DNA of 64,000 bases, from contig OX597832.1 of NCBI GenBank assembly GCA_951406725.2, positions 33,418,001 through 33,482,000 of the forward strand. The letters run 5' to 3'. Origin of the DNA: Octopus vulgaris (lineage: Eukaryota). The number at the start of each line of letters is the position of its first letter. The stretch's first letter is position 1. A program made the translations under genes and the position numbers. Shown here piece after piece: positions 16,091-64,000 of this stretch. The notes below the pieces were generated by a model. That model had not been told where the DNA came from. It was given only the letters and a program-made list of their open reading frames with translations, and searched no databases.

Positions 16091-17654
16091 CAGAGTATTA
16101 ATATAAATGTATTAGAAAGGATATATCGAAGTTTTATTGCCTGTAAAACTTATTGTTACCTGTGCAATAAATAATAGAAAAAATGTTCAATAAAAATCTA
16201 TTCATTAAGTGATACATATACCATTCGTTAGAATTTCATCTTATTGAACCAAAAGGATCGACATATAATTGCATATTCCTTATTACGCAATATTTTCTCA
16301 TAATTATCTCATGATTTAGAAAATATACACACTGATGAGTTTCGATGCGTTTGAAAAATTTAATATTTCAGGATATTTACCTAAGTTATTTCCAATCACA
16401 ATAATATATTATATTAATTTCAAATTTTCCTCTGCTAAACACATAATTTTTGCTTTCTACTTCTCTCACTTTTTCTCGCTACATTCTACTTCAGCAAGCG
16501 TGTTAACCATGTGATCTCGCCCTTCATATCGCTAACATTTCTCTGTTTCTGTTCCTCTTCCCCACTCACTTCCACCAAGCACCCATTCCCCTTTCTTTTC
16601 TATCTCAACCACACTCCGCATTTCTCTCTGTCTCTCTCCCACCCTCCCTCCCTCCCTGTCATTCTCACTCCACCTCACATCAGACCTCCTCCTCTCTCTA
16701 ACTCACTAAAGCGTAACGTGTGAGGTATCTCAAGCTTAGACACCGATGACTTTGCAGGGGATCCACTCCACAAGGTAAATAAAGACTATAAGAGGCATCG
16801 AGTTGAGCGGGTAGGGGCACAATTATACGGATAAACAAGTGAGATGCATTGAATATATCAAATATGTTAAGTATGGTATATGTAATAGATTCGGTATGAA
16901 ATGCAAAATATGTTTATCTGCATACAAACAAAACGAAAGAAAGGTAATGGTAGATACTTTCAGATTACGAATTGTGCTTGTCCCGAATCCTAAAGGACGA
17001 CCTGCGCCTGCTCATACGCTGCTTAAATGGGTCGCCTATGAAACCGTCATATTTCTGTGGCTGTGCTCTTGTGCTGGCGGTGTAACAGGCGTTGCTGTTA
17101 CTGTCGTTAACTGTGCGCCTGATGCGGGAGACACTGTAGGTTTAGCCGAATTGCTGCCTGCATTGTTGGTGCTGTTGTTACTGTTGAAGCTGTAAGAATA
17201 GTTACCGTAGTTGTCTCTGCTGCTTGATGTCTTGTTGCCACCAGCCACCACCTCTGCCACTGCCTCTGGCGCAGCCCTCGTCCCCTCCACCACCGCCGTC
17301 ACTGTTACTGTGCAGTGGCCCCTCGGCACCGCTACTGCCGTTGTTGGCAATGCTGTTGCTGTTTTAGCCAGAATACCAAAATACAGCGAAACTTTTGACT
17401 CAACACACACTATATATATATATATATGTGTGTGTGTGTGCGTGTGTTTGTGTGTGTGTGTGTATATATTTATATATATGTATATATAAATATATATATT
17501 TATATATACATACATACATATATACATACATACATACATATATACATGTATATATAGAGACATACACACACGCACACACACTCACACACACATATATATA
17601 TATATATGTATATGTATATAAATGTATAAATATATATTTATATATAAATGTGTG

Positions 17655-18924: not shown

Positions 18925-19103
18925 GTGTGTGTGTGTGTGTGTCTGTGTGCGTGTGTATATATGTATGTATGTATGTAATGTATTATATATAAGGGAAATT
19001 AAGATTCAAATGGATATAAAATACCACTTGGTAAAATCCGAGCCAATAATCCAAAAATAACAGTAATGATACTTATTTCATATATATATATATATATATA
19101 TAT

Positions 19104-19755
19104 TCGAGAGATTGCCACGCTATTATCCTTCTCTTCTCTACTTTTGCCCGACCCCACCTTGAATACTGCTGTCCACTGTGGTCTCCCTACACAAAACAAA
19201 ATATTATGAGAATTGAAGCTCCTCAAAGGTCAATCACAAAAAAGATAGATGGCATGTCAGACCTTGACTACTGGGGTAGACTAGAGAAGCTGAAATTGTA
19301 TTCACTCCAACGACGCCGTGAACGCTACATTATCTGTATGATGTGGAAAATATTCCATCAGCACTGTCCGAATGATGTTGGCATCACCTTCAAAATGCAT
19401 CCAAGGCTTGGACCACGTGCCATCCGTCCACAACAAAAATCTAAATCGCATCACATAACGACAATACGGCACAACTATTTCACCTCAATTGGACCCGCTC
19501 TCTTCAACATTACACCAGGACACGTCAAAAAAGAAACTGACCACACAAAATTCAAGAAGTCTTTGGACAAATTCCTTCAAACAGTACCGGACAAACCACC
19601 CACACACTCCCGGATATGTCTCCGCAAACAATAACTCTCTGCTCGAATGGGCCTTGGTGCCCAAATCCTGAACTGAAAGACTTCGCCAGGTGGTGCTATT
19701 AAGTTAGACATGGCCTGGGCCAATACTGGCCAAAACCTTTCTAAGTTATTCTAAG

Positions 19756-19824: not shown

Positions 19825-20278
19825 CACATAAAATTCAGCAGAGCAAACGTTCGAAGCACGGAATGGACGAGGATTTTAAAGGACTCCCTCGACCCGGGAA
19901 ACATCTTAAATTCTTGGTCAGAAGTACTCGGACCTTGTTTCACTTCAGGTCTTTCCTCATAAAATCCTTGGACTCGCAAGCTGACTGGGTGGATTCAGGT
20001 TAGTGGTCTAAAGGAGATAATCATTTGTGCTTGACCTTTCTTCTTTGTCTGTGTATTGGAAAACTAGCCACAAGGCCTTTTTTCGCTGCCTTATGAAGAG
20101 AGGTTATAAGCTACCAGCCATTAGGGTCTGTGTAAAGTTAAGCGCCGTATAGATGCGAAATTGTGGGCAACCCTATGGACCGGCGTTATCTAAAATTCTC
20201 TAAAGACTATTGTTCTGTAACTTGGTACTTCTCTTTTGGATTTATGATTTACTGATTATATATATATACATAATACAC

Positions 20279-20408: not shown

Positions 20409-21380
20409 CATTGTGATGAAGGAACTGAGTTGACTCTACTTTGTATGCACGATTGTTTTGGCAACTGACAATGCAAAACTGCGATCATAAATGTAGAGAA
20501 ATGTATCATATTTGAATGGCTTTATGTTTCATCTAAATTTCACACAAAGAACCCCTCATATTTAAATCTGAAACTCGTATTGTAACTGCTACAATGATCA
20601 GCGTGTCACAAAGTGACGCACTTTTCCAACAATATTTATACAGCAATGACTCCCATGTCGCTGTCAACGTTATTTTGCACTGCATTTTGTCTTTTTTCTA
20701 AATTTTGTACCGAAAGACATTCCCGTTGCATTTGTGACATGGTTTTTTTAATAATAACTAATACTCGTCGTTTTGTTTCCGTTAATATAATAAAAACAGC
20801 AATGATATTAGTTTGGTTCGTAAGCTCAGCGAATCAATACACGATTGGTTTCCACGATCGAGGTTAAAAATATATTATGGTACCAACATAATGAAAGGAG
20901 CGCACGAAAATGAATAAAAGAATAAACAAATCTATGAAAGAAATATCATGATATTATTTGTGACGTTATTATATTAGGTTAGCTTCGGTAGAGAGAGATA
21001 CGCTCCGAACGTTGTTTCGATGGCTTCGCTTTTGGTCTAGGTATTGTCGTTGTTGTTGTTGTTGTTAGGAATATATGAACAATGTCGGCAGATATGAAGA
21101 TGAATGTTGAATGGAGGCGTGTTAATGTGTGTGTGTGTGTGTGTATGTGAGTGTGCGCGCGTTTGTGTGTATGTGTGTGAGTAATTGTGTTTATAACTGA
21201 AAAAAAAGGGAGATAATAAAAGGGAAGGATACGAAGAAAGATTTATGATGGAATATTATCCGAGGTTAATAATGCTGCTATCGAAATGAGAATATATATA
21301 TCGTCAGTAGGTCATACATCCGAAAAAGGAGCCGTTCTCTAAAACAGAACAGTAATATATTTAGATGGTTGTTTGTTATG

Positions 21381-21467
21381 TCCGGTCAGAGAGGGACCAC
21401 AGAGAGTGACCATTGGTTTCGCACTTATAAAGCTGTATAGTCGACTCGTCAGACTGAAATGACCAGA
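21381..21467 (-). ncRNA. Type I hammerhead ribozyme, intact core
   Basis: Minus strand: TCTGGTCA tttc AGT CTGACGA [GTCGACTATAcagcttTATAAGTGC] GAAA CC aat G GTC ACT, 16 nt, TGACCGGA. All core nucleotides and three helices present. Confidence 0.75.
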
Positions 21468-21801
21468 TGTACGTAACTTCTCTACAATTGGAGAGAGGAA
21501 AACCTCACTCTCAGTTTAGTAAAGAAAAAAATAAATCTGGAACAAATACTACAGGTAAGCTTTCGGGTTGTGTTTTCCCCTTTACACTGTTTCTAGCTGT
21601 TCCAGCTCGGGAAATGGAGAGTTATAGGCCTGCAACAGGAAACGCCTGTGATATTATGAAAATGGTTCGCAACTATCACGTTGACTAAACATTCCTTTAT
21701 TGGAATCTAAAAATACCCCGGTTCAAACGAGCTTTACAGCGAATAAGATACGAAATACAGCAAACCTTTTGACTAAATAATATATATATATATATATATA
21801 T

Positions 21802-21868
<67 letters not shown>

Positions 21869-47082: not shown

Positions 47083-47165
47083 GGTAGCGTGGCCAACCGG
47101 TCTAAGGCGCTGGTTTAAGGAAACCAGTCACTTCGGAGGCGTGGGTTCGAATCCCACCGCTGCCA
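47083..47165 (+). tRNA. tRNA-Leu(AAG)-derived gene, probably a variant or pseudogene (8-nt anticodon loop)
   Basis: GGTAGCGTGGCC..GGTCTAAGGCGCTGGTTTAAGG..GTGGGTTCGAATCCCACCGCTGCCA is nearly the metazoan Leu-AAG sequence; acceptor and T arms intact; AAG at 47117-47119. Confidence 0.85.
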
Positions 47166-56812: not shown

Positions 56813-57354
56813 AAGCACCTCAAAGGGCAATCACAAAAAAGATAGATGGCATGACAGGCCTCGACTATTGGGGTCGACTAGAAAAGCTAAAACTCTATTC
56901 TCTCCAACGTCGTCGTGAGCGCTACATCATCTACATGATGTGGAAAATATTCCATCAGCATTGCCCAAATGATGTTGGCATCACCTTTAAGGTACATCCA
57001 AGGCTTGGGCCCCGTGCCATCCGCCCAAAACAAAAATCGCACTCTCATCTCATAACAACAATACGGCACAATTATTTCACCTCAATTGGCCCCGCTCTCT
57101 TTAACATTACACCAAAACACATTAAAACAGAAACTGACCCTATAGGGTTCAAGAAGTCTTTGGACAGATTCCTTCAAGAAATCCCGGATAAACCCCCTAC
57201 ACCCGGATATGTCTCTGTAAACGATAACTCTCTACTTGAGTGGGCCATAGTGCCCAAATTCTGACTTGAAAGACTTCACCAGGTGGTGCTATTAAGTTAG
57301 ACATGGCCTGGGCCAATAATGGCCGAAACCTATCAAAGTATCAAAGTATCAAAG
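56813..57354 (+). mobile_element. CR1/L2-group LINE 3' end, copy 2
   Basis: ORF 56851-57264 is highly similar to 19206-19671 and uninterrupted to its stop; tail (TATCAAAG)3; flanked by (TA)n. Confidence 0.9.
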
Positions 57355-58715: not shown

Positions 58716-59880
58716 TCGAAAAGTACCTTAGGAATGAGAACCCAGGTTCGAAATTTCCCCAAGGCACCCGATGAAGGCTGGAAGGAGTATCAGCCGAAAC
58801 GTTGTGTTAACAACAAACAAGATGAGGACAAGAATCCGTCAAATGTAAATAATGTAGCAAATATGATGTCATCACCAATGCAATACTGGTCCCCATCCAA
58901 GTGTTCTTTTCATGTTGGAGAACTCAACAAAACAAGAGAAGAAGGACGAGTGCCCAACCAATTCAAAACCAGTCACTGAAATCAAGGAATTGTGTCCTGG
59001 AGCTTTGTACTGTTAAAACAATTCATCTTTCGTCATTTCTCCTGGGCGTGTATTCCAGACCGCCTTTCGTAACTGCCTCACCAACTTAGAAATACTGCAT
59101 TCATGGTGTGACCCTTTTGGATATATTCAATAAACACAATGTCGTTTGCATCCCCCTAAAAAGGCCGATTCATTTCACGCGAATGAAACGACCTTGGCCC
59201 TCTGTGGAGTAGGTGAAGAAGTGGTATCTCCACTGCATGGAATGTTTCTTTCTTTTCGGCTCAAAGTAATTAACGCAACACTCATATTGGGTCCAAGTAA
59301 ACCAACTGGATTTGCCTCAGACAATGTCAGATTTGCCCGTGATGTGATCATCCTGGGGCGCATTTGAACAGGGATCAGAAGACGTGTCGCCCACCGAGCA
59401 GAAACCTTCGTCAGGCCAAGTTCATGGTGGAGAATATTCACAACTCTTTCACAGGATACTTTAAAATCATTGGCTACATGTACAATCAATCGTTTGTAAT
59501 CGATCACTATGTTTTCCTTGGTGAGGCCATTTGCAAGAAGTAAGGACCGTGAGCTATCTTGAGTACTCTCCTTTCCCCTCATGAATTCAGCTGTCCCCTA
59601 TTGCATGGTTCATAGATCTTGAGCGTCATCCTCGGATGTAGTTAGCACGTCGGCATGAATGTCAACGGAGACTACACCTTTTATTTGCAGGTACTTGATA
59701 ACACTACGCTGCCAAAGTTTGACCATTTCCAAGACAAGTTTCTGCTAGTCATATTAAAGTCTTCTTTGAACAGTCAGCTGTCAGTTTACCTGGAATAAAG
59801 CAGGAAGAGTTGAACTTAATGCCGACAAAATTTCGCAGCTCTAGCACCACTCCTTCCAAGGTAGCCTCTGATTTAGTCAG
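58245..59880 (-). mobile_element. Mariner transposon, near full length, degraded, interrupted at 58375-58855
   Basis: ILHHELGLTKVSARWATRLL (cf. WVPRLL), IVFIEYIQKGHTMNA, and C-terminal KWKKCVGRKGDYVEK* left of the insertion. Confidence 0.88.
58375..58855 (+). mobile_element. Composite non-autonomous element: B-box, (AAT)n, hammerhead variant; 12-bp TSD
   Basis: AGCAGATATGAT 58363-58374 and AGCAAATATGAT 58856-58867; GAGTTCGATTCC 58438-58449; GGCAC CCGATGA A GGCTG..CAGCC GAAA C GTT GTGTT 58763-58808. Confidence 0.7.
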
Positions 59881-63593: not shown

Positions 63594-64000
63594 TTGGGTT
63601 GGCAACGTCGTTCCCACCGTTTTTTTTAATTTAAATTTTTTTAAATGTTTAATAAAAAATAACAAACTAATTCAACTTTGTTGTTTACAACTTCTTCCCA
63701 ACGTTCGACAAGATTTTCAGTAACTCGTTGGCAGAAATCATCCGATTTCGACTCGAAAAGTTGATCCATCCAAGCTCTCAATTTTGCATCAGTATTGAAC
63801 GAAACTCCACGCATAACATTTGAAAGAGATGGAAAGAGGTGGAAATCCGTTGGTGCCAAATCAAGAGAGTACTGCGAGTGTGGCAGCACTTCCCAGTCAT
63901 GCGTTTGAATGGCTTCCTTAGTCATATTGGCGATATGAGGGCGGGCGATGTCGTGCAGCAGAAGAACTCCATGCTACCGATTAGGTCTTTTCTCTTCAAT
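63594..64000 (-). mobile_element. Mariner transposon 3' part with TIR, continues beyond the window
   Basis: LLHDIARPHIA, WEVLPHSQYSLDLAPTDFHLF, LVERWEEVV; TA followed by TTGGGTTGGCAAC terminus. Confidence 0.92.

Follow-up and report, generated by a model that had tools for sequence, protein, structure and literature searches.

A type I hammerhead motif of Octopus vulgaris is very probably the 3'-end hammerhead of a decayed Hydra-type Penelope-like element

A stretch of 64,000 nucleotides of the Octopus vulgaris genome, here called the window, carries on its minus strand a sequence laid out like a hammerhead ribozyme, which raises the question of what kind of element it belongs to and whether it could still cut. 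A first-pass annotation had placed its core, G-C closure, GAAA, helix III, GUC triplet and helix I, and we found every one of these elements in place. On the minus strand, the core CUGACGA (C3–A9) reads at 21452–21446, helix II is closed by G21445–C21421 (G10.1–C11.1), and GAAA at 21420–21417 is followed by ACCAAUGGU at 21417–21409 and GUC at 21410–21408. In proximal helix I, AGU (21455–21453) pairs with ACU (21407–21405), and distal helix I joins UCUGGUCA (21467–21460) to UGACCGGA (21388–21381), one of its eight pairs being G-U. By the hammerhead consensus, the cut is predicted to fall between 21408 and 21407. A loose type I descriptor applied to both strands of the window gave a single match, this motif at 21381–21467, compared with 0.02 matches per dinucleotide-shuffled window (a match arose in 4 of 200 shuffles). 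The motif has the CUGANGA core, GAAA, NUH triplet, three helices and open helix I of a type I hammerhead, with all 11 core bases and C17 present. Rfam hammerhead models found nothing in the window, either at the gathering score or at E ≤ 10, and the hammerhead region folded no better than shuffled sequence (z −0.13). The manual anatomy and the family of copies described below stand regardless of the Rfam result, and the agreement of sequence and family supports reading the motif as a real type I hammerhead with a GUC site. Its parts, in minus-strand order, are as follows.

21460–21467, minus strand: distal helix I, 5' strand, pairing with 21388–21381
21453–21459, minus strand: proximal helix I 5' strand (AGU) and the 4-nt loop side (alignment)
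21446–21452, minus strand: hammerhead core C3–A9, CUGACGA (sequence, descriptor)
21421–21445, minus strand: helix II, with G10.1–C11.1, a bulged U and then eight family pairs, six of which are left (alignment)
21408–21420, minus strand: GAAA, the 9-nt palindromic helix III region (ACCAAUGGU) and C17 (sequence, descriptor)
21387–21412, minus strand: 13-nt tandem duplication (21412–21400 and 21399–21387, 12 of 13 bases alike; sequence)
21381–21388, minus strand: distal helix I, 3' strand (sequence, descriptor)

The hammerhead had been called intact, which is right for the core but not for helix II, where A21441 and A21425 disrupt two adjacent pairs. The helix II loop has a 7-nt deletion that is also found in copies L007, L024 and L048, and C21456, in place of the family G, cuts proximal helix I from 4 to 3 bp. 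The helix III region is a 9-nt palindrome, a feature characteristic of the dimer-dependent hammerheads of Penelope-like elements (PLEs).

The internal loop of helix I, 4 by 16 nt, had suggested a fast ribozyme of the Schistosoma Sm-alpha kind that works through a loop-loop contact, and the motif does share type I topology and an extended helix I with an internal loop with Sm-alpha and the canonical fast type I hammerheads. The loop arose from the 13-nt tandem duplication, which makes the 16-nt side and a second GUC at 21397–21395, together with the G-to-C change at 21456. In family alignment A1, the duplication is present in 1 of 16 rows, that of the window copy itself, and it is bridged by orthologous contigs of three sequencing runs, one of them labelled organism A. 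The family form, read from the 16-copy alignment, has a proximal helix I of 4 bp, followed by a 3×2 loop and then by a distal helix that contains a single C-A mismatch. Canonical fast type I hammerheads have a 6-bp helix I, a 4-bp helix II and conserved loop contacts (PMC4209133), as against 3–4 and 9 or more bp here. A conserved loop 1–loop 2 contact was not found: the 4×16 loop occurs in 1 of 16 copies, and neither helix has its canonical length. Because the large loop is private to one copy and the family has PLE-type anatomy, the fast Sm-alpha-like reading is unsupported and, judging by its sequence, the loop is not a designed tertiary loop.

A copy-number search, which the first-pass annotation had proposed, placed the motif in a dispersed repeat family, and the suggestion that it is an orphan ribozyme falls with that result. 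A 131-base query gave at least 41 matches in the 2.8-Gb genome (277 candidates, 40 scored, so that 41 is a lower bound), and the non-self copies were 71–85% identical. With a profile we obtained 94 matches; removing 14 that came from duplicate loci and 6 that belonged to distant subfamilies left 74 copies. The copies share their 3' part and differ in their upstream break points, and every copy seen is broken.

It had also been stated that no transposable element coding sequence lies nearby, which proved wrong, for the end of an endonuclease frame is found at 21739–21599. This remnant, 130–270 bases upstream of the hammerhead and between two TA repeats, matched a profile of 18 other copies, from which the window copy was excluded, with 48.1 bits (E 1.9e-14). 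It reads HRRFLLQAYNSPF in one frame and is interrupted by stops, frameshifts and a 21-nt insertion. The whole insertion is bounded by TA tracts, one at 21780 and a short one at 21301, and its parts outside the hammerhead are listed here.

21780–21804, no strand assigned: (TA)n tract adjoining the 5' break of the insertion, likely the target site (Tandem Repeats Finder, sequence)
21740–21779, minus strand: some 40 bases that separate the TA tract from the first aligned base, outside the ORF-end profile match and not aligning to the family
21599–21739, minus strand: remnant of the 3' end of the reverse transcriptase (RT)–endonuclease frame (profile, alignment A1)
21468–21598, minus strand: 3' untranslated part of the element (pseudo-LTR body), aligning with family copies
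21358–21380, minus strand: A/C-rich stretch to the short 3' end point common to many family copies (alignment, profile)
21302–21357, minus strand: optional 3' tail of about 55–60 nt (tail profile match, window E 9e-13)
21293–21301, no strand assigned: short (TA)n bordering the insertion at its 3' end (sequence)

By profile, the optional tail is present in 24 of the 68 copies that reach the 3' end, including the window copy; RNAalifold gave 0 consensus hairpin pairs in the tail from 19 of the 24 tail-bearing copies, a weak negative given how decayed the copies are. In 42 of 68 copies a tract of (TA)4 or longer is found no more than 140 nt from the end, a raw count in a microsatellite-rich genome. 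An inverted partner accompanies 11 of the 53 loci with a match, the window copy having none. A second CTGACGA, at 21307–21301, was considered as a second monomer and rejected: it consists of the last bases of the tail, which are the family 3' terminus, plus the TA tract, and is not followed by GAAA. Elsewhere in the window, 19841–20201 (plus strand) holds a second PLE end from a sister subfamily, with an ORF end and a decayed hammerhead (about 20084–20201), which lies tail-to-tail with the hammerhead copy at a distance of 1.1 kb. A separate broken copy at 16983–17116 (minus strand) contains a fragment of the low-complexity insert of the family and the start of the endonuclease.

The link between this hammerhead and coding sequence is direct in other members of the family. 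Translations upstream of other copies contain RT (YRDD), a thumb, a CxCx5C linker, both GIY-YIG halves, CxxC-E and N-CxH, and in L093, L061, L067 and L073 the RT, the endonuclease and then this hammerhead follow on one strand. It therefore lies, like the pseudo-LTR hammerheads of PLEs, on the sense strand downstream of an RT–GIY-YIG frame, and it has their anatomy, helix II being long and bulged, helix I short and helix III palindromic. The family also displays 5' truncation, inverted 5' partners and optional tails, of which the last two are PLE hallmarks (PMC8557442). Published PLE hammerheads have a helix II of 7–8 bp with a bulge at its 5' end, a helix I of 4–5 bp and a palindromic helix III (PMC4209133), and PMC6765202, citing Lunse et al., concurs. 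In the PLE pseudo-LTR hammerheads of Cervera and de la Pena 2014 (the min-HHR and its variants, PMC4209133), as in the family, one base is left unpaired near the 5' end of a long helix II, helix I has 4 bp, helix III is palindromic and the copies are mostly single and dispersed, with some opposite-strand pairs. The family differs from them in that its bulged U follows G10.1 rather than preceding it, and in a helix I that can be extended by 5–7 bp more, the window copy adding its private duplication. We consider it very probable that the motif is the 3'-end hammerhead of a 5'-truncated, decayed PLE with the Hydra motifs, lying between two TA repeats, and that alone it likely cuts poorly or never.

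By definition, Hydra PLEs have a short ORF and canonical hammerheads and insert into (TA)n; their protein carries RWK and DKT, a CxCx5C linker, and CxxC and CxH next to conserved E and N, and has no CCHH (PMC8557442). The linker, the CxxC and CxH around E and N, and the lack of CCHH were encountered in copies L021, L038, L049 and L052, and TA tracts flank the window copy on both sides. RWK and DKT occur in the sister-subfamily loci L096, L146 and L151 and in a young family described below; the copies carrying this hammerhead fall short of the N-terminus. Head-to-tail tandem copies were present in the young family and none was seen in the subfamily of the window hammerhead, and a same-strand hammerhead lies just 5' of the ORF at sister-subfamily loci L137 and L140. 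Pfam gave no RT or endonuclease match (0 families for both of two proteins). Placement of the family in the Hydra clade is likely, based on these motifs and on a by-eye likeness to Hydra-1_Obim of Octopus bimaculoides (Craig et al. 2021, PMC8557442). That element resembles the family in its C-terminal GIY-YIG, CxCx5C, CxxC-E, N-CxH and lack of CCHH; its protein reads nearly alike in the RT5 region (by eye), and the clade shares (TA)n insertion and a sense hammerhead near the 3' end. The helix III 9-mer of Hydra-1_oBim (PMC8557442 File S2) is identical. Its helices I and II differ, and its cut triplet is GUU as opposed to GUC in the family, so the two are different families; by eye, the Hydra-1_oBim motif matches locus L098 and not the family of the window hammerhead. 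We did not find this particular family described in the literature searched; it may be deposited in Repbase or Dfam.

A further difference from Hydra-1_Obim, whose GIY-YIG insert is short, is a Ser/Asn/Gly-rich stretch of 110–140 residues in the family at that point. We observed 110–140 Ser/Asn/Gly/Asp-rich codons between the GIY and YIG halves in L038, L061, L100 and L105 (L054 having a further insertion), compared with 18 codons in the young family; the short insert of Hydra-1_Obim has a similar make-up to the stretch of the old subfamilies. Just after the first GIY-YIG half, across five copies, the ORF frame contains a single stop, compared with 9 and 22 stops in the other two. The printed PLE tail measures 30–40 nt (PMC8557442), against 55–60 nt here. 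Optional tails have been traced to two reverse-transcription start sites in an AC-rich stem-loop (PMC11167929); the short end of the family also comes after an A/C-rich stretch, which we infer may fit two such start sites.

Type I hammerheads in animal genomes also occur as non-LTR retrozymes, one of the identities first offered for the motif. Metazoan retrozymes (Cervera and de la Pena 2020, PMC7229834; Li et al. 2026 preprint) share its type I form, and PLE pseudo-LTRs are their proposed source (bioRxiv 10.64898/2026.07.22.740005). They are head-to-tail repeats of 150–450 nt (PMC7229834), whereas the family lacks a tandem unit: no non-coding tandem ribozyme repeats of that length were seen in the window or at the 53 loci, just 1 of which has two same-strand matches. 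The 5' ends of the copies are moreover variable and extend into RT–endonuclease coding sequence, and the window copy itself has an attached ORF end, so that a retrozyme monomer is scarcely credible.

The decay of the copies bears on whether the preserved core means that the host has kept it. All 11 core bases are retained in 16 of the 61 copies that span the motif, and 10 of the 61, the window copy among them, keep the core, C17, G10.1–C11.1 and 3-bp helices I and III. Since 4 of 21 copies chosen by their endonuclease end, blind to the ribozyme, have an intact core, such a core is no sign of domestication. Decay is heaviest in the CpG columns, to which G8 and G12 belong (60–65% identical). Identity in non-CpG core columns is 0.915 compared with 0.866 in other columns overall, and 0.883 compared with 0.847 in the endonuclease-selected set; this slight excess speaks against a dead relic, although it can be accounted for by selection bias and by selection acting on the parent elements. 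Divergence from the family majority has a median of 14% (58 copies), the window copy standing at 10%. Among 16 core-intact copies, the window copy has the best-paired distal helix I (7 of 7), and the C-to-T change that repairs this helix is present in 4 of the 16 rows of A1. Covariation within the family (16 rows) did not exceed shuffles on any of five measures, as expected of neutral decay from one parent. In related PLE families of the same genome the letters of helices I and III vary and the pairing is kept. At L099:3936, L100, L105, L144 and L148 we observed at least three more old subfamilies with hammerheads of their own, in which the helix I and III letters differ and the pairing is likewise kept.

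A domesticated ribozyme would fit the intact core and the perfect distal helix. On that model, the duplication would have made a dimer-dependent transposon hammerhead work alone, the host keeping the form and its activity being tuned by the added bases: ACCA would pair with the second UGGUC as a longer, closed helix III, with the cut shifted to 21395/21394. This second register is predicted to be 5 kcal/mol cheaper than the first (10.0 vs 15.1), but its helix I begins with a U-C mismatch. The locus is also common to runs of four organism labels (A–D), which implies only an insertion before a recent split and is silent on selection. The orthologues are only about 1–1.6% diverged, and three orthologous contigs differ at 4–6 of about 372 bases, too few to judge, with none of the differences listed in 21404–21470; paralogous contigs swamp 21405–21444, and one unlisted difference in each of two orthologous contigs could fall in the ribozyme. 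About 1 in 5 copies keeps the core in any case, helix II is damaged, and no host exon was recognised in the window by eye in the ORF listing. The earlier suggestion of domestication thus has no support, and we rate this model, including the new helix III and the shifted cut, as highly improbable.

With the PLE assignment preferred, we considered how its hammerheads would have worked and what the window copy can still do. In the active parent, as published PLE work suggests, head-to-tail transcripts would have carried two such hammerheads, which would have paired through the 9-nt helix III palindrome and cut slowly at GUC, thereby processing the precursor RNA of the element. The endonuclease would have nicked (TA)n DNA, and reverse transcription, halting about 480 bases from the 3' end, would have left a stub that then drifted, with about 10% substitutions, the 7-nt deletion and the 13-nt duplication. 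Single PLE-type motifs show no detectable cleavage and dimers show low cleavage (PMC4209133, with PMC6765202 in agreement). The computed energy of the helix III 9-mer is +0.4 kcal/mol when it folds as a hairpin and −8.2 when it forms a homodimer. Given the PLE shape, the pairing kept in related families and the preference of the 9-mer for the homodimer, we infer that the hammerheads of the parent most likely worked in pairs, cutting within tandem transcripts.

For the window copy, the active monomer fold is predicted to cost 15.1 kcal/mol (6.8–18.3 in seven other copies), and plain folding does not place the active form in its minimum-energy structure, the predicted pair probability being about 0 for G10.1–C11.1 and proximal helix I. 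The folding models ignore tertiary contacts and Mg2+, and they rated every hammerhead copy tested as unlikely. No second hammerhead of the family was found on the same strand within the 64-kb window. The copy is likely a dead relic. It might instead be PLE-derived and still cleave measurably, as a monomer or in trans with other transcripts, with no host role, and such residual activity would draw on the core, C17, G10.1–C11.1 and 3-bp helices that it retains with 9 other copies, on the 8-bp distal helix present in the minimum-energy fold and on the same palindrome in many other copies. The silence of single PLE-type motifs, the near-zero pair probabilities and the lack of a same-strand partner in the window all weigh against it, and we hold it to be improbable.

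Several further features of the window were recorded. Open frames at 19050–19634 (plus strand) and 56815–57264 (minus strand) resemble, by eye, what we take to be LINE reverse transcriptase ends, and those at 59175–59597 and 63641–63973 (both minus strand) are presumably pieces of mariner-type transposase. The only Rfam match in the window, at 47083–47165 (plus strand), is tRNA-like, scores 46.7 bits and has a long variable arm; it may be a gene or the head of a SINE.

A young Hydra-type PLE family came to light in the same genome at L091 (G000:C3:37228500-37238499), L092 and L101. It has an intact frame of 717 codons with RWK, DKT, CxCx5C, CxxC and CxH, a head-to-tail period of about 2590 bp, inverted partners and dozens of equal-scoring copies. 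In its pseudo-LTR hammerhead, core position 4 is C (CCGAAGA, U4C), helix III is palindromic and the cleavage site is GUU; of 10 matches, 9 are full motifs of identical sequence, and a junction cuts the remaining one. The U4C change lowers activity in vitro, yet leaves enough for a viroid in vivo (PMC3088659).

Hammerheads at PLE ends have already been described, including that of an octopus Hydra element, and the present case is another family. The window copy itself matters little, being lone, worn and likely inactive. For genome scans it offers two cautions, namely that roughly one-fifth to one-quarter of dead copies keep an intact core and that a duplication arising by chance can look like the internal loop of a fast ribozyme. 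The role of PLE hammerheads has been called unclear (PMC8557442), and catalytic mutants had no effect on insertion in vitro (PMC11167929). The young family would be a good system in which to test that role, and is a more useful lead than the window copy.
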